From the sequence record NC_055721.1: a DNA stretch of 64,000 nucleotides. One strand, given 5' to 3'. The notes under the pieces are model-generated. The model was not told the origin of the DNA and did no database searches. It saw only the letters and a program-made list of their open reading frames with translations. The DNA comes from Escherichia phage EcS1. The number at the start of each line of letters is the position of its first letter. Within the stretch, counting starts at the first letter, position 1. The translations under genes and the position numbers were made by a program. Shown one piece after another: positions 30,934-62,444 of this stretch.

Positions 30934-30962
30934 ATCTTATCACAACAAAATGAGGATGTAAA
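30934..30962 (-). promoter_or_regulatory. Early promoter (-35 TTTACA, 17 bp, -10 TAAGAT) inside 13-bp inverted repeat
   Basis: Arms CCTCATTTTGTTG (30913-30925) and CAACAAAATGAGG (30943-30955); the downstream arm contains the alc SD (GAGG). Confidence 0.55.
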
Positions 30963-32135
30963 CTACTCTTGTTCGATTACAATTTCTTTCTTATATTCGT
31001 CTGGAACGAAGAACTTGTGATTCTTGTTAAAAGCTTCGTTAAGCTGTGGAATTAACTTATCTAGGTCTAAACCACCTGTGAACGCTTTCATCAGAATTGG
31101 GAACAGATAAGAACGGTCTGCATCTTTAAAGATTGTTTGAGCAGAGATAGCGAAGTCTTTACGGTCACGACCAGCTAGTTGCTTATAAGTTGTTTGAACT
31201 AAGTCTAATGCATGACGCAAGAACTCTAAATGAATAGTTTCAAACTTATCAATCTTAGTGATAGCCCATTCATCGCCTGCGAACATAGAACGAAGGTCAT
31301 CAGAACCACCAGACACGACAGATTCGAAGAGAGCTTCGTTTTTAGTGATGGAATCTTTAGTACGATGCAAAGCAACATACCAATCAGTTTTGAGCTTAAA
31401 GTTCAAACCGTTTTCCATTACAAAAACATAACCTTCTACACCTTCTTTGGCGCGAATGCCAGGCACAAATCGTTCATCGGCAGGAACATTAAATGCTTCT
31501 ACCAAATGAGGACGAAGCATTGCATCTTTAAACAATTCTTCATATGGAACATATTCACCAGTCTTATTTTCACGAACATTCAGAAGAATCAGGTCACGTT
31601 TACTATAAGCCAGAACGATACGGTTATCTGGTGCAACGTATTCCATGTTACAAGTGAAGCCATCTTTAGTAAGTTGAGTCACACGTTTCAAGAATTTTTC
31701 ATAACGTGGACCATTGATAACTTGTAGTGCTGCATAAGCTTGTTCAGAAGAAATAGAAGCCTTAGACTTCAAGAACAGTTGGTCGTTATCTACAAAGCTA
31801 GAGATTAGAGAACCATCAGCCTTATCCATCATCAATTTGATTTTAGTAAGGTCCAAGTTCATGGTAAATGGAGTTTCATCTAAGTTAAAGAATTTTTCCA
31901 TCGGACGAGCTGCAATACGAGTAGGCTTACCATCGACCATTTCAAACATAATGCCGCGGCACTCTAGAGCGTCAGGCAGAAGCCAATCAGAGTAAGATGC
32001 ATAGTTATAACTGAAGATACGATACTCACCACCAAACGGCGTCTGGTAGTCACGGAAATAGAATTTAGACTGGTCTTTTGGGTCAGTCAATTTCATCAGG
32101 TTTTTGTACAAATCATGTTCTTGTTTAGTAATCAT
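30963..32135 (-). CDS. rnlA: RNA ligase 1 (tRNA repair)
   Basis: Matches T4 gp63 as recalled: YRIFSYNYASYSDWLLPDALECRGIMFEM, RPMEKFFNL, adenylation motif KADGSL. Confidence 0.9.
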   Translation of the reverse strand: MITKQEHDLYKNLMKLTDPKDQSKFYFRDYQTPFGGEYRIFSYNYASYSDWLLPDALECRGIMFEMVDGKPTRIAARPMEKFFNLDETPFTMNLDLTKIKLMMDKADGSLISSFVDNDQLFLKSKASISSEQAYAALQVINGPRYEKFLKRVTQLTKDGFTCNMEYVAPDNRIVLAYSKRDLILLNVRENKTGEYVPYEELFKDAMLRPHLVEAFNVPADERFVPGIRAKEGVEGYVFVMENGLNFKLKTDWYVALHRTKDSITKNEALFESVVSGGSDDLRSMFAGDEWAITKIDKFETIHLEFLRHALDLVQTTYKQLAGRDRKDFAISAQTIFKDADRSYLFPILMKAFTGGLDLDKLIPQLNEAFNKNHKFFVPDEYKKEIVIEQE

Positions 32136-40800: not shown

Positions 40801-40829
40801 ATCTTACCACATCTAAATGAGGTTGTAAA
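40801..40829 (-). promoter_or_regulatory. Early promoter (-35 TTTACA, 17 bp, -10 TAAGAT)
   Basis: Immediately downstream of gene 32 terminator. Confidence 0.5.
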
Positions 40830-40842
40830 CAGATACAAAAAT

Positions 40843-54965: not shown

Positions 54966-54994
54966 ATTCTATCATGTTATAATTGGATTGTAAA
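54966..54994 (-). promoter_or_regulatory. Early promoter for asiA (-35 TTTACA, 17 bp, -10 TAGAAT)
   Basis: Minus-strand reading upstream of asiA start. Confidence 0.5.
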
Positions 54995-55315
54995 CCCGTT
55001 ATCTTGAACTACCGCTTCAATGAATCGCATCGCGTTCAGAAGTTCCGATGCTGTTTCTGATTTAATTTCAAAGTCAGTGTTAATCTTGCCTAGAAGAACA
55101 TTTTTGTATTCACCAATAGACTTCATACAATTAAACCGATTGATGACATCATTAGCTGCTACGTACGCAGGAACGTTGGCTGCGACAGTTTTCTTTAGAC
55201 TGAATACAATACTATATGTCGTCTTAATAGCTTCAAAGGTGCGGCAATAGTGCTCGTAGACATTACGTTCTAATTCGAGTTTAGACTCGAGGACATTCTC
55301 AAGATTATGACTCAT
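54977..55315 (-). CDS. Hypothetical protein (arn region of T4 map)
   Basis: 112-aa ORF. Confidence 0.35.
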   Translation of the reverse strand: MSHNLENVLESKLELERNVYEHYCRTFEAIKTTYSIVFSLKKTVAANVPAYVAANDVINRFNCMKSIGEYKNVLLGKINTDFEIKSETASELLNAMRFIEAVVQDNGFTIQL

Positions 55316-56959: not shown

Positions 56960-57595
56960 TTAAGCCAGAACTTTAAGCATAGTTTGAACTTCAACCAATG
57001 AAGCAGTAGAAGTTGTGTCGATGTAAACGTTTTTGCCACCAATTTTAGTTGCAAAACCTGCATCAGAGAAAGCTTTAACCAGAGCTTCATCCATATTGTA
57101 ACCAAAGATACGAACCTTACCATCACGACGAACTTCGATCTGACGAATACCTTTAGTACGTTTGACCAAGCGAACTTCTAAGTTACTACGGTTTTCAGCG
57201 ATTTCTTTAACTTCAAATTCAGCGGCTTCCATTGCAACTTTAACTTCATCAGCCATTTTAGTCATTTCTGAAGTCACACCACGAGCACTACGTGTTTTAC
57301 GTACTTTAGTTAACTCAGGTTTTTCTTCGGCTGCATAGATGTCAGCAGCTTTGTTGATGATATCCATACCATCTTCAGTTACCATCAAACCATCAGCCGA
57401 TTTTTCGATGAAACCTTTTTTAATCAGAACACCAATGTTAGAGTTCACTGAAGAAGCATTAATTGTTTCAGCCAGGTTTTCACGGATTTCAGCTGAAGTG
57501 ATGAAGTTCTGCTTAACAACTTGAGTCAAGATTGCAGCAGTTTTTTCGTTCAGAGAATCTTCGGAAGCTTTGATGATATAAGTAATTTTAGACAT
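56960..57595 (-). CDS. motA: Middle-transcription activator MotA
   Basis: Start MSKITYIIKAS (T4 MSKVTYIIKAS); conserved NSNIGVLIKKG and C-terminal IFGY.M region. Confidence 0.9.
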   Translation of the reverse strand: MSKITYIIKASEDSLNEKTAAILTQVVKQNFITSAEIRENLAETINASSVNSNIGVLIKKGFIEKSADGLMVTEDGMDIINKAADIYAAEEKPELTKVRKTRSARGVTSEMTKMADEVKVAMEAAEFEVKEIAENRSNLEVRLVKRTKGIRQIEVRRDGKVRIFGYNMDEALVKAFSDAGFATKIGGKNVYIDTTSTASLVEVQTMLKVLA

Positions 57596-57638
57596 TTGAA
57601 ACTCCATTATGTTTTAATCAATTTGTTGGTGTAGGAGT

Positions 57639-57667
57639 ACTATACCATGTTTTGATGCTGTTGTAAA
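57639..57667 (-). promoter_or_regulatory. Early promoter for motA (-35 TTTACA, 17 bp, -10 TATAGT)
   Basis: Minus-strand reading; preceded by GAGCTCTT/AAGAGCTC hairpin at 57679-57698. Confidence 0.55.
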
Positions 57668-57709
57668 CACTTTATTTTGAGCTCTTTTTCAAGAGCTCTG
57701 GTAAAATGC

Positions 57710-57973
57710 TTATGCGTTATACTGTTTTGTTACTTCGTTTTGAATCGCTTTATGGTTTACTCTGAATTGTTCAGCTGTATTAACTGCAAAACCTGCAAGT
57801 GATGAAATGTTAGAACGAAGACCGGTTACTTCAAGAGAAATCATATCTTTTGAAACTGATTTGCTTTCACCAAATGTAAGTGTGAAGTTTTCAGCAGTGT
57901 CTGAATTAATTTTTTTGCAAAGAACCAGTAAAGTAACAGTGATTTCGTTTACGTTATCGTTAAAAGTATTCAT
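57710..57973 (-). CDS. Hypothetical small protein
   Basis: Start at internal ATG with GGAG RBS downstream of promoter. Confidence 0.35.
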   Translation of the reverse strand: MNTFNDNVNEITVTLLVLCKKINSDTAENFTLTFGESKSVSKDMISLEVTGLRSNISSLAGFAVNTAEQFRVNHKAIQNEVTKQYNA

Positions 57974-58013: not shown

Positions 58014-58042
58014 ATAATACCATGTTCCTACACCGTTGTACA
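58014..58042 (-). promoter_or_regulatory. Early-type promoter cassette (duplicate of 40170-40198) with GGTGTAG/CTACACC inverted repeat
   Basis: ~45 bp near-identical to 40151-40198. Confidence 0.45.
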
Positions 58043-58044
58043 TA

Positions 58045-58698
58045 CTAAAGTGAAAAAGATTTGCAAAGTTTCCACTGAATTTCTGCATAAGCATATTTGT
58101 AGCCTAAATCCATCATTTCACTGATGAAGTAAGACTTGTTATCACGATTCAATGTATAAAGTCCTACAGCCAATTTAGTAGGCTTAGCAACACGTTTCAC
58201 TTCACCGCCAAAGTTAGGTGAAGAAGGCTTTTGAGAACGTGGTAGTTCTTGGTTAGTGAAAGCAGCTACATCGAATTCTGATTCTTGACGAGTATGGCCA
58301 GCATTAATCATCCAAGATTCATTGAACCCAAAACGACCTTTTATTGGCAGTTTAGCACGAGCATGTTTGTCACCAAGCTCAAGAGCTTTAGCACGCCATA
58401 CTTTATCGTGTCCATGACCTTCAGTTAATGCATGAGCTAGTTCATGAAGAATAATTTCTTCAACACATTCAGCTGGGATAGCAAAGAACCAATGCGCTTG
58501 AAAAGCAATTAGCTTTTTGCGATAGCTGCAATGAGCAATTTCATGTTTACGAGTAGAAGAAACTATTTTGAAGTCCCATCCATCTAAACCGTGTTGCTTA
58601 CACTTGGCTTCAAAGAAACCTTTAGCTGAATCCACTGAGTGGAATAAAACTCCATTGTGATAAAAAGCTTTGGAAGCGATACGTTCGATAAGATTCAT
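58045..58698 (-). CDS. Putative zinc metallopeptidase-like protein (HExxH motif; SprT/Wss1-like)
   Basis: ILHELAHALTEGHGHD contains HExxH plus downstream His; family assignment tentative. Confidence 0.4.
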   Translation of the reverse strand: MNLIERIASKAFYHNGVLFHSVDSAKGFFEAKCKQHGLDGWDFKIVSSTRKHEIAHCSYRKKLIAFQAHWFFAIPAECVEEIILHELAHALTEGHGHDKVWRAKALELGDKHARAKLPIKGRFGFNESWMINAGHTRQESEFDVAAFTNQELPRSQKPSSPNFGGEVKRVAKPTKLAVGLYTLNRDNKSYFISEMMDLGYKYAYAEIQWKLCKSFSL

Positions 58699-58726
58699 TT
58701 TGTTTCTCCATGTTGGTAGGATTGCT

Positions 58727-58754
58727 ATCTTATCATGTCTAGAGCAAAAGTAAA
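58727..58754 (-). promoter_or_regulatory. Early promoter (-35 TTTACT, 16 bp, -10 TAAGAT)
   Basis: Upstream of ATG 58698 (GGAG RBS). Confidence 0.45.
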
Positions 58755-58869
58755 CAGCCAATAAAAATATTTTTGGATGCGTAGGACAACGCCAGGGAGA
58801 TTTAATTTGAGAGGATGTAGAAACATAAAAGGGGCCCCTTTCGGAGTCCCTGCGCGTATCTGGCTAACC

Positions 58870-60243
58870 TTATTTGATTTCTTTAAGGTCTTTGGTGTAT
58901 TCAGTAACGACATCAGTCGTCTTCCAATACTCATGTTCTTCTTTTTTAGCTTTAGCTTCAAGTGCAAGCTTCTTGGCTTCATCAGAAGTAATATGATAGA
59001 TGTTCATTGCAACAAGTTTATCAGCATAATCAGGCCAAGTCTGAGAGACTTCTTCTAACAACTCTTTACGAGTCTTGCCTTGTAATACGATCTTACCATC
59101 AATAACTGTTTTAATGAATTGAGCCTTAGCCAAAGCTAATTTAAAGGCTTCTTCAGTTTCACAGATTTTAAGGTCAATACGTTTTTGAATATAAACTTTA
59201 CGAACATCGACGAATCGACGAATCAAATCAGAAGCACATGTGAATTCTTCTAATTTACCCTTCTCATTAATTACTGTAATGTTCTGGGTACGTCGTTCAA
59301 CAAGCCCAAAGTCTTTCATGATTTTTTCATGTCGTTGTTCTTCATCTTCACTAAGAATATATTCTTTACGAAGTTTAACCTTGAAGCCAAAACCGGTTTT
59401 AGAACAATCATCATCATATGTAATGAAACCAGCATCTTCAAGTGGGTCAAGAATCTTGGTTACATATTTTTCACGGTCCCACTTATATGGAACTTCACTG
59501 ATATAAAGCTGAGTTCGTGAAGTGAATTTATACTTACCACGAATTTCATATTTACCTGGCTCAGTTGTAATAACTTCACCTTCGAATCGTGGGAAAACCA
59601 CATCAGGTTCTTTATTCAACTTACCTTTAAGAGCTAGTTTAGTACACTCAACAACAGATGCTAAACCATGCGGCATGATGTTAGTAGCATACCCTGTAGC
59701 GATACCAGACACACCATTCAAAAGAACAGTTGGAATCACAGGCAAATAAAAACGTGGTGGGATATGTTCTTTATCTTCGTGTTCAGGAGCATATTCAGAG
59801 TCTTTATAAATGTGATAGAAGTTCTCTGAAACTCGCCCGAAAATATAACGTGATGCTGCCGCTTCTTGAACTAATCGAGAACCAAAGTTACCTTCGCCAT
59901 CTAGCATTGGAAGATTATTGTTCCAATCGTTCGCCATTAATGCGCCTGCATCTTGGGCTGAACCTTCGCCATGGTGATAACCCAAGTCGGCTACGCCACC
60001 TGCAATAGAAGCAAGTTTATGGAACTTAGTTTTATTACCACGAGCTAAATCTAATGCACGATGGACCACAAATCGTTGGACTGGTTTAAAGCCATCAATC
60101 ATATTAGGAATGGCCCGGTTTTCAACCGTATACATTGCATAAGCTAAGGCTTCGTTATCGATAATACTTTTTAGACCACGAATATTCAATGAATCTAAAG
60201 TATCTGTTGTTTGCTTAAAAACAATATCTAAAATATCTGCCAT
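58870..60243 (-). CDS. 52: DNA topoisomerase II medium subunit gp52
   Basis: 457 aa (T4 gp52 442); GyrA/ParC-like N-terminal region; position after motA. Confidence 0.8.
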   Translation of the reverse strand: MADILDIVFKQTTDTLDSLNIRGLKSIIDNEALAYAMYTVENRAIPNMIDGFKPVQRFVVHRALDLARGNKTKFHKLASIAGGVADLGYHHGEGSAQDAGALMANDWNNNLPMLDGEGNFGSRLVQEAAASRYIFGRVSENFYHIYKDSEYAPEHEDKEHIPPRFYLPVIPTVLLNGVSGIATGYATNIMPHGLASVVECTKLALKGKLNKEPDVVFPRFEGEVITTEPGKYEIRGKYKFTSRTQLYISEVPYKWDREKYVTKILDPLEDAGFITYDDDCSKTGFGFKVKLRKEYILSEDEEQRHEKIMKDFGLVERRTQNITVINEKGKLEEFTCASDLIRRFVDVRKVYIQKRIDLKICETEEAFKLALAKAQFIKTVIDGKIVLQGKTRKELLEEVSQTWPDYADKLVAMNIYHITSDEAKKLALEAKAKKEEHEYWKTTDVVTEYTKDLKEIK

Positions 60244-60848: not shown

Positions 60849-61310
60849 TTAACTCTGCAGAATAAAGTTAAAATTATCGCCTAACATCAAGTTCATTTCT
60901 GTGATGTTCTGATATTCTTCATTATGGCGACGAGTGAAAGCTAAAGCCAATTGACCTTTGCCAAAACCAGTAGTCAATGGTTTCATTTTTTCGATTGGTA
61001 GATAAAGCACTTCATACAGAACACCATTGTAGTGCATGGTACGGTTTGCTTGGCTACGGTCAGAACGAATGTTACTAAGTACACCACGGAAGCCATGACC
61101 AGAACGTTGACGACCAATTGCAAAACGAGCAGCAACTTGACGATAACCCATAGCGCCTTTAACAACAAAATAAAAACCAGGCTGAGCTAGCACTTCATTA
61201 TCTACATAACCAACTGTTTCGCCATTACGGATAAAACAAACAGTAGTAGCGCCAACATCTTTCAGAATATCACGGGTCATATTTGTACGGGTCATATTTG
61301 TACGGGTCAT
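60849..61310 (-). CDS. ndd: Nucleoid disruption protein Ndd
   Basis: Matches T4 Ndd as recalled (PGFYF, KMKPLTTGFGKGQLALAFTR identical, NFKF.LQ); start at first ATG after GAGGAA RBS, inside a 15-bp tandem repeat. Confidence 0.85.
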   Translation of the reverse strand: MTRTNMTRTNMTRDILKDVGATTVCFIRNGETVGYVDNEVLAQPGFYFVVKGAMGYRQVAARFAIGRQRSGHGFRGVLSNIRSDRSQANRTMHYNGVLYEVLYLPIEKMKPLTTGFGKGQLALAFTRRHNEEYQNITEMNLMLGDNFNFILQS

Positions 61311-61313
61311 ATT
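61272..61313 (-). repeat. In-frame 15-bp tandem repeat (ACGGGTCATATTTGT x2.8) encoding MTRTN-MTRTN-MTRD at the ndd 5' end
   Basis: Two perfect copies plus 12-bp partial copy; each unit carries an ATG on the coding strand. Confidence 0.85.
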
Positions 61314-61452
61314 AATTTCCTCAATAAGTTTAAGTTTTATACTCCACGGACATTTTAACATGTCCGGTTTAAAGCTTACCACCATCCAAAGTACTGTGGA
61401 GCCATTAGTCCAATTAAAAAGAAACCAATCATCATTAAAATACGGTCATAAT

Positions 61453-61791: not shown

Positions 61792-61820
61792 ACTATACCA
61801 TGTTAATCAGACGTTGTAAA
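61792..61820 (-). promoter_or_regulatory. Early promoter (-35 TTTACA, 17 bp, -10 TATAGT) overlapping 3' end of denB-like gene
   Basis: Cassette similar to motA promoter; drives tiny TM ORF at ~61649-61765. Confidence 0.45.
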
Positions 61821-62444
61821 CACCTTACATGCACATGAGTCTTCCCAGCCCCAATCAACACGTCCTGAGATATACCAACCAGTGAAATTACTCTTTGCAA
61901 CTAATCCGGCTTCCTTTTTGAATGCCATCTTGTCTGCAAGTACGTAAGGGATAAGCCTGTACGCGCCAGGACCCATCTTCTCAACACGGAATATAATTAT
62001 AACGTCTGATACAGAGAATTCAATGAACGGCCCCAGGTTAATCCCATAACCACCTGGATATCGTCCGAACTGACCAGTTGTACATCCTACCCACTGTTTC
62101 TGACCTATACGTTCAGGGTTCAACATACTTGTCTTAACTTCAACTCGCAATCCAGAATACTTAGGATGAGCCAGCACATCGTATGCATACGTGTAAGGGT
62201 CTTTGAGATTTTCGCCACCATGATTAATGTAGCCATCAAGATGGTCAGCTACATAACGTTCGGCAATGATAGCTGGGATACAACGATCAGTAACTTCTTC
62301 GAGGTCTTGTTCAGGGTCTTGAGACATCGAATAACGAACAGTGTCTTTAATCTTTACTTTATCTTCAGGACTCAAATCCTTGACCGTGAAAGTCTGTGTC
62401 TTCAATTCGCTCAATCGGACCCAGCCCGGATTCGTCAGTTCCAT
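61803..62444 (-). CDS. Hypothetical protein, possibly endonuclease IV (DenB) by synteny; start uncertain
   Basis: Position between ndd and rIIB as T4 denB; N-terminal 80 nt overlap with upstream ORF. Confidence 0.35.
   Translation of the reverse strand: MELTNPGWVRLSELKTQTFTVKDLSPEDKVKIKDTVRYSMSQDPEQDLEEVTDRCIPAIIAERYVADHLDGYINHGGENLKDPYTYAYDVLAHPKYSGLRVEVKTSMLNPERIGQKQWVGCTTGQFGRYPGGYGINLGPFIEFSVSDVIIIFRVEKMGPGAYRLIPYVLADKMAFKKEAGLVAKSNFTGWYISGRVDWGWEDSCACKVFTTSD

Follow-up and report, generated by a model that had tools for sequence, protein, structure and literature searches.

SprT-like domains are common in phages, and in eukaryotes the related enzymes Spartan and Wss1 play a central part in repairing DNA-protein crosslinks (DPCs). 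Here we analyse a gene of this family in a stretch of 64,000 nucleotides from Escherichia phage EcS1 (sequence record NC_055721.1; Kagamiyamavirus, Tevenvirinae; genome of 175,437 bp), hereafter called the window. The gene lies between gene 52, for the medium subunit of topoisomerase II, and motA, and from its sequence and modelled structure it is predicted to encode a small basic zinc metalloprotease, a zincin of the SprT-like / Spartan-Wss1 branch, with its active site intact. We hypothesise, at a probability of roughly 0.4 and partly by analogy with the eukaryotic enzymes, that the product would be a DNA-associated protease acting on DNA-bound or DNA-crosslinked proteins.

In Spartan (SPRTN; 6mdx, 6mdw) the third active-site histidine stands in the context E-G-H-G-P-E-F, 15 residues after the second. 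The EcS1 protein resembles Spartan in its match to the Pfam family SprT-like (PF10263), in its basic character, in an HExxH motif with a third histidine in E-G-H-x-x-x-[FW] (the E-G-H-x-x-V-W of EcS1 being similar to the Spartan context), and in a conserved cysteine, within a C-S-Y strand motif, that aligns with Spartan GICSY in the 6mdx alignment. It differs in having no zinc-binding subdomain, basic region, or PIP, SHP or UBZ motif, in being just 217 residues long with an unrelated three-helix C-terminal domain, and in a second-to-third histidine spacing of 8. With bacterial SprT (the E. coli SprT/YggI type) it shares the Pfam family and the catalytic motif, but not the C-terminal Cys-rich zinc ribbon (CxxC...C) that is present in many relatives. 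Unlike Wss1, it scores below the Pfam cut-off for the WLM family (PF08325; 18.9 vs 26 bits), and SUMO- or Cdc48-binding elements were not found in it. The minigluzincins (selecase MJ1213, proabylysin and projannalysin), which have a minimal zincin scaffold of roughly 100-110 residues with an HExxH and a His in the next helix and behave as zymogens or oligomeric switches, are 17-19% identical to the EcS1 protein; unlike it, they are stand-alone archaeal proteins without an extra domain, and no Pfam or sequence assignment places the EcS1 protein among them. ArdC of plasmid R388 (6sna) joins an N-terminal single-stranded DNA-binding domain to a C-terminal zincin with Glu as third ligand, a make-up that the EcS1 protein does not have; the two share no detectable sequence similarity, and the structural match is far weaker than those to Spartan or the minigluzincins.

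The family assignment is already public, through the UniRef name "SprT-like domain-containing protein" and the label "sprT-like protease" in the records of KLB31, Entb_45 and UPEC03, so the EcS1 gene is an ordinary member of an annotated family. The leads are its placement after gene 52, its C-terminal mini-domain and the fusions of related domains to SNF2 helicases; the searchable literature gave no description of the placement after gene 52 in two lineages, of the orphan mini-domain, or of SNF2 fusions as clade context.

Active site, predicted fold and domain architecture

The initial annotation, made from the sequence letters, had described a 217-residue open reading frame (ORF) with an HExxH motif between motA and gene 52, and had proposed a SprT/Wss1-type zinc peptidase with a third histidine six residues downstream of the motif. 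The ORF is confirmed on the minus strand (58045..58698); its product is 100% identical to EcS1 KNT65_gp161, which NCBI lists as hypothetical, and has a computed isoelectric point (pI) of 9.2. The proposed peptidase type stands as well, with a Pfam match above the gathering score, invariant catalytic residues and a predicted fold that fits. PF10263 matches residues 45-112 (E = 2.3e-6, 27.8 bits vs a gathering cut-off of 25.6) and is precomputed in databases for all 19 homologues, while PHROG 10840, whose function is not assigned in PHROG, aligns along the whole protein at 1e-100. As for the histidines, the HExxH with a downstream histidine is right and the spacing of six is not. The segment HELAHALTEGHGHD (residues 85-98, nucleotides 58405..58446) holds H85, H89 and H97, which would bind zinc, and E86, which would activate water. 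These four residues are invariant in 18 orthologues of 57-76% identity and in 66 diverse SprT-like proteins, a set in which nothing else is invariant but C57, A88, W101 and G109. H95, at +6 from H89, gives way to Glu in the majority of homologues (PGEGHS), and we therefore assign the role of third zinc ligand to the invariant H97, 8 residues after H89. HExxH occurs twice in the window (91 stop-free segments of at least 100 codons, 21,449 residues), both times in this ORF. The other copy, HEIAH at residues 52-56, was rejected as a catalytic site, most homologues having K-R-N-I-G-Y (RNIGY) there.

Other family models were less receptive. YgjP-like / DUF45 (PF01863) remained below the Pfam cut-off (16.4 vs 26 bits), and the NCBIfam equivalog models of bacterial SprT (PRK04860, PRK04351) left the EcS1 protein unmatched at E <= 0.1, so that we do not regard it as an orthologue of bacterial SprT; the homologue in phage RB16 reaches 12.7-13.6 bits with these models, whose cut-offs are 113-175. 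Sequence searches of the PDB with the single protein or with an 18-sequence family profile returned nothing, even at E <= 10. A profile of the 66 diverse relatives placed Spartan on top (6mdx_A, E = 6.5e-4, in an alignment that stops at the HExxH), followed by selecase and projannalysin.

AlphaFold2, with the family alignment as input, gave a three-part model with a mean predicted local distance difference test score (pLDDT) of 80.9 and values of 85-95 across residues 11-130: an alpha/beta zincin core, a disordered stretch at about 145-169, and a C-terminal three-helix bundle at 175-216. The core strands are predicted at 42-47, 55-58 and 63-67. In structure comparison the best scores went to the minigluzincins (selecase 4qhf 10.2, proabylysin 4jiu 10.0, projannalysin 4jix 10.0), followed by Spartan (6mdx, 9.2), Wss1 (5xbn and 5ln5, 7.6 and 7.2), an HtpX domain (6.3) and ArdC (6sna, 5.5), and Foldseek recovered the same set of structures. 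The motif thus sits inside a confident predicted zincin fold that resembles minimal zincins, Spartan and Wss1, and the reservation attached to the initial annotation, that it might lie outside a metalloprotease-like fold, falls away for this model.

The linker between core and bundle is predicted to be disordered, with pLDDT below 50 at 145-155 and 160-163, yet it is conserved: in the 18-homologue alignment it follows the pattern FD-x-x-AFT ... ELPRSKKPSSPNFGG, with F142, D143, A146, F147 and T148 invariant. A conserved disordered linker of this kind is possibly a short interaction motif. The C-terminal 51 residues, modelled alone, fold with a pLDDT of 88.5, and this mini-domain is in no Pfam family. 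Across its occurrences it has the motif K-P-T-K ... Y-A-x-x-Q-[WY]-x-L-C-K, and these occurrences extend beyond the protease. Escherichia phage C1 (KGB51_gp68, L008:2498-2653) and its relatives encode it as a stand-alone 51-residue protein, and in Shewanella phage Thanatos-1 it ends the 145-residue protein TH1_089 (L009:2234-2671), behind a helix-turn-helix (HTH)-like N-terminal region. In Serratia phage LC53 (L096:1059-1738) the orthologue is split into a 146-residue protease ORF and a 48-residue ORF with only the mini-domain, which could be a natural separation of the domains, decay or a sequencing error.

Distribution and placement beside gene 52

Full-length orthologues were found in 54 phage records, and in all records inspected (Kanagawavirus, Winklervirus, Marfavirus, Mosugukvirus, Tegunavirus and phage MHG19) they lie between gene 52 and motA. 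Most of these PHROG 10840 members are annotated as hypothetical; they include Klebsiella phage KLB31 XOA00295.1 ("sprT-like protease"), PEi20 gp165, PM2_283 and phiR1-RT g261. The EcS1 protein is like these T4-like orthologues in sequence (41-76% identity over the full length), three-part architecture, 52-motA position and upstream promoter motif. A second lineage consists of SprT-like proteins of 180-184 residues, which have only the core in common with the first (37% identity over 87 residues); in Pseudotevenvirus (RB16, UPEC03, SemperBestia) and Slopekvirus (P-KP2) their gene follows gene 52 directly. Both lineages are basic, with a pI of 9.0-9.8. The gene orders are ndd..52-SprT-motA in the first lineage vs 39-52-SprT-x-rIIA in the second, and the gene is directly downstream of gene 52 in 13 of the 13 GenBank records inspected (Tevenvirinae genera including Marfavirus, Pseudotevenvirus and Slopekvirus). 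In an IMG/VR sample, gp52 is encoded immediately upstream at 18 of 80 SprT-like loci, all 18 belonging to the two lineages.

The two lineages do not appear to be each other's nearest relatives. In BLAST many unrelated SprT-like proteins outrank the other lineage, and an exclusive clade of the two was recovered in 0 of 100 neighbour-joining bootstraps (218 core domains, 99 columns), their mutual distance of 1.37-1.57 being no smaller than the median distance of 1.32-1.37 to all others in that set. As read from these sequences, this suggests that a SprT-like gene was acquired twice at the same spot after gene 52.

The wider family is large: its profile collected 4,404 representative clusters at E <= 0.001, and tblastn found 489 phage records. 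Eight of the 80 viral loci encode fusions to an SNF2-family helicase, proteins of about 700 residues with an N-terminal SprT-like domain, a Cys-rich segment and the Pfam domains SNF2-rel_dom and Helicase_C (viral metagenome contigs L029:2675-4795, L064:67-2220, L035, L045, L050, L054, L058 and L061). In a third T4-like lineage, of metagenomic contigs of the L068 type (locus L068:2968-5886), the SprT-like gene (PHROG 3768) lies about 0.8 kb upstream of the genes for the helicase loader gp59 and the single-stranded DNA-binding protein gp32. Just upstream of this gene we also noted a GIY-YIG-type homing endonuclease and an endolysin-like ORF.

Expression signals and the EcS1 locus

The gene likely forms an early transcription unit, as judged from its sequence signals (Table 1). 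Its start is the ATG at 58698, since all 18 aligned homologues open with MNLIER, a GGAG stands upstream of the codon, and the alternative, a 238-residue version from a TTG at 58761 in the mechanical ORF list, would contain the promoter; that longer version was rejected. The promoter-like site ends 28 nucleotides before the ATG. A scan for sigma-70 promoters (TTGACA/TATAAT) missed it, with 8 of 12 matches, as a simple terminator scan missed the hairpin before it; the former was found by a T4-specific pattern search and the latter by folding. Sixteen copies of the pattern GTTTAC-N16-18-TAnnnT are present in the window vs 3.0 +/- 1.5 expected; 12 of them are on the minus (early-gene) strand, and one precedes motA. 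Orthologues in X20, PWKp16, PM2, KLB31 and phiR1-RT have an equivalent motif 27-38 nucleotides upstream, with a GC hairpin before each. The early-type promoter that the initial annotation gave the gene is thus backed by a T4-type consensus site and by its conservation upstream of orthologues, and its suggestion that T4 has no equivalent between motA and gene 52 is borne out, the T4 interval holding just motA.1, of 49 residues. As the gene has its own T4-type early promoter and a terminator before it, host RNA polymerase should transcribe it within the first minutes after infection. A MotA-dependent middle promoter, considered for a TGCTCTA in the promoter spacer, was rejected: the box is just 7 nucleotides from the -10 element, and the distance needed is about 11-13.

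Table 1. Features of the SprT-like gene of phage EcS1 and its surroundings (positions in the window; residues are those of the 217-residue protein where given).
Feature	Position	Strand	Remarks
SprT-like coding sequence	58045..58698 (including stop)	-	217 residues; KNT65_gp161 / YP_010090979.1 / UniRef100_A0A2Z5ZD02
Predicted zincin protease core, about residues 20-143	58270..58641	-	backing helix, three-stranded sheet, active-site helix 76-91, helix 99-108
Catalytic motif H85-E86-L-A-H89 ... H97	58408..58446	-	predicted zinc ligands H85, H89, H97; predicted general base E86
Second HExxH, HEIAH, residues 52-56	58531..58545	-	not conserved; chance occurrence
Linker, residues 144-166	58201..58269	-	predicted disordered yet conserved, ELPRSKKPSSPNFGG
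C-terminal basic three-helix mini-domain, residues 167-217	58048..58200	-	invariant K-R-x-x-K-P-T start; pI 9.6
Shine-Dalgarno GGAG	58706..58709	-	7 nucleotides 5' of ATG, read from sequence
Early (sigma-70) T4-type promoter-like site GTTTACTTTTGCTCTAGACATGATAAGAT	58755..58727	-	GTTTAC, 17-nucleotide spacer, TAAGAT; TG-type extended -10 context
Terminator-like hairpin AGGG-A-CUCC GAAA GGGG-C-CCCU + U run	58827..58851	-	just 3' of gene 52; predicted fold
Gene 52, topoisomerase II medium subunit	58870..60243	-	upstream neighbour; Pfam DNA_topoisoIV 6.7e-76; PHROG 551
motA	56960..57607	-	downstream; Pfam MotA_activ 7.4e-33 and MotCF 1.8e-14; early promoter 57668..57639
Orphan 87-residue ORF	57710..57973	-	between SprT-like gene and motA

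The hairpin and promoter together look like a PeSL cassette, PeSLs (promoter-early stem-loops) being composites of a stem-loop terminator and a TTTACW-N17-TAYWAT early promoter that flank a variable gene and are reported to mediate gene shuffling in hyperplastic regions of T4-like phages (PMC4122927). Measured against this definition, the EcS1 hairpin at 58851..58830 with its U run and the TTTACT-N17-TAAGAT are about 70 nucleotides apart and the -10 element deviates from TAYWAT at two positions; the whole 76-nucleotide stretch holding the hairpin has a folding z-score of just -0.58. Comparable GC hairpins with T runs are found in X20, KLB31, ZX14, phiR1-RT and MHG19. RB16-type and Slopekvirus phages separate gene 52 from the SprT-like gene by 72 bp, and this spacer, with a GC hairpin and T run amid promoter-like hexamers TTGCAT-17-TATAGT, is a compact terminator/promoter cassette (L003:3872-3943, L004:2872-2943, L005:2876-2946).

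Beyond the gene, the early promoter motif of the window can be written GTTTAC(A)-N16-18-(G/A)TG(G/A)TA(T/A)(A/G)AT, with a five-fold enrichment and a minus-strand bias (example sites at 57668..57639, 61821..61792, 54995..54966, 40830..40801 and 30963..30934); the set could serve for mapping the early transcription units of EcS1. The 87-residue ORF next to motA has no PHROG, NCBIfam or PADLOC match and a sub-threshold one to Pfam DUF6145 (E = 0.12, 13 vs 27 bits); a sigma-70-like site, TGTACA-17-TATTAT, lies near it at 58042..58014, and the small ORFs at its position differ among related phages. Farther upstream of gene 52 come four small membrane ORFs, ndd and denB, in the usual order of the T4 early region. 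Towards the 5' end of the ndd ORF (60849..61385) there is a perfect 15-bp tandem repeat of 2.8 copies (61272..61313) that encodes MTRTN-MTRTN-MTRD; since the PHROG Ndd match begins at residue 33, the true ndd start is uncertain and may fall in or after the repeat.

Possible functions of the protease

The comparative evidence leans, weakly, towards a DNA-linked role because of the homology to Spartan and Wss1, the SNF2 fusions, the basic protein, the HTH-like domain and the placement beside replication genes. We hypothesise that the enzyme would act on DNA, as do Spartan and Wss1, that its basic three-helix C-terminal domain and conserved linker would tether the protease to DNA or to a DNA-bound partner, and that the protease core would degrade proteins that stay stuck on the phage genome, or become covalently trapped there, while it replicates. 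The leading candidate substrate would be the cleavage complex of the phage topoisomerase II. In this enzyme of T4, the subunit that bonds covalently to DNA through a tyrosine is gp52 (GyrA/ParC family), and this covalent tyrosyl-DNA intermediate, together with the SprT-like gene that directly follows gene 52 in two lineages, makes topoisomerase II a candidate. The narrower proposal, a Spartan-like DPC protease dedicated to topoisomerase II that would be made early, be held on DNA by the three-helix domain and digest covalently trapped gp52 ahead of replication forks, we regard as doubtful; in T4 covalent topoisomerase complexes are processed by gp46/47.

Several observations weigh against the DNA-linked role and its tie to gene 52. 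T4 manages without a SprT-like gene, and the EcS1 protein is without the zinc ribbon or zinc-binding domain that bacterial SprT and Spartan use. The SprT-like gene and gene 52 are not an operon, given the terminator between them and the promoter of the former, and their adjacency could reflect an insertion hot spot, since the 52-motA interval is variable, from one short ORF (T4 motA.1) to four ORFs (KLB31) with a content that differs among ten relatives, and a PeSL-like unit is present. Moreover, at 62 of the 80 viral loci gp52 is not encoded within 6 kb, the 16 kb examined about the SprT-like gene of Vibrio phage VS1 (Schizotequatrovirus) lack a gp52 homologue, the L068-type contigs (L066, L068, L077, L079, L080) carry the gene elsewhere, and SprT-like genes also occur in mycobacteriophage and other small phage records. 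Neighbours of SprT-like genes in other phages are heterogeneous, and among 150 ORFs around 41 non-T4-like viral genes there was no recurrent partner family (DUF6011 was the most frequent, at 3 of 150, and the others reached at most 2). The tree that speaks for two acquisitions is built on 99 columns only, and the two lineages may have an ancient common ancestry. Finally, the literature searched yielded neither biochemical nor genetic evidence on SprT-like proteins from phages or bacteria; on phage SprT-like function, on anti-defence metalloproteases and on SprT with a T4-like topoisomerase it held genome-annotation mentions alone.

The same early promoter would also fit a host-directed enzyme that serves takeover or counter-defence by cleaving one or more host proteins, for example a nucleoid protein or a restriction or other defence protein that acts on incoming DNA; this is the main alternative, and we consider it somewhat unlikely. 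It has a precedent in the anti-restriction protein ArdC, which has a zincin metalloprotease domain (PMC7213743), and patchily distributed SprT-like and ArdC-like peptidases of jumbo phages have been argued by Iyer et al. to target host proteins (PMC7824862). The distribution in question is patchy too, with no copy in T4 and a presence in some genera only; in EcS1 the gene is set among takeover genes (denB, ndd, motA and arn-like ORFs), and elsewhere some of its neighbours (DUF932, DUF3846, RadC, a DNA methylase) are typical of anti-restriction or establishment regions. However, the structural match to ArdC is the much weaker one, no PADLOC or other defence-related model matches the protein, which is therefore not a recognised defence component, and a host-directed role leaves both the repeated placement after gene 52 and the SNF2 fusions unexplained.

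Alternatively, the gene could be a mobile, promoter-bearing accessory cassette without any topoisomerase tie, adjacent to gene 52 through an insertion hot spot or shared ancestry and involved, for instance, in the processing or turnover of early proteins. A terminator and early promoter upstream, as in the published PeSL cassettes, the variable content of the 52-motA interval among the ten relatives, the split orthologue of LC53 and the T4-like phages with the gene elsewhere all argue for such a cassette, but two lineages that are not nearest relatives share the spot despite different flanks (motA vs rIIA), and the whole protein including the linker is strongly conserved; we hold it to be unlikely. 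It would explain the origin of the gene and not its function, and is thus compatible with either functional reading, on DNA or on host proteins. As for the gene being an inactive or decaying remnant, a binding-only pseudo-protease or a gene on its way to loss, the LC53 split, the missing zinc ribbon of many relatives and the lack of the gene in T4 and many other relatives could be read in this way. The invariance of the catalytic residues, in 18 orthologues and 66 distant relatives, makes a dead remnant highly improbable, and the ORF is intact, with a ribosome-binding site, a promoter and a confident predicted fold.

If, on the other hand, the enzyme attacks host proteins, it would be a candidate early counter-defence factor. 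Returning to a protease that acts on DNA-bound proteins, its topoisomerase II version, if true, would mean that some T4-like phages have a proteolytic route that T4 lacks, and would provide the first DPC protease of a prokaryotic virus and the first functional assignment in the phage and bacterial SprT-like family. If the placement after gene 52 is functional, the proteolytic removal of trapped topoisomerases could be studied by simple genetics in T4-like phages, and the presence of the gene would explain differences between phages in their sensitivity to topoisomerase poisons.

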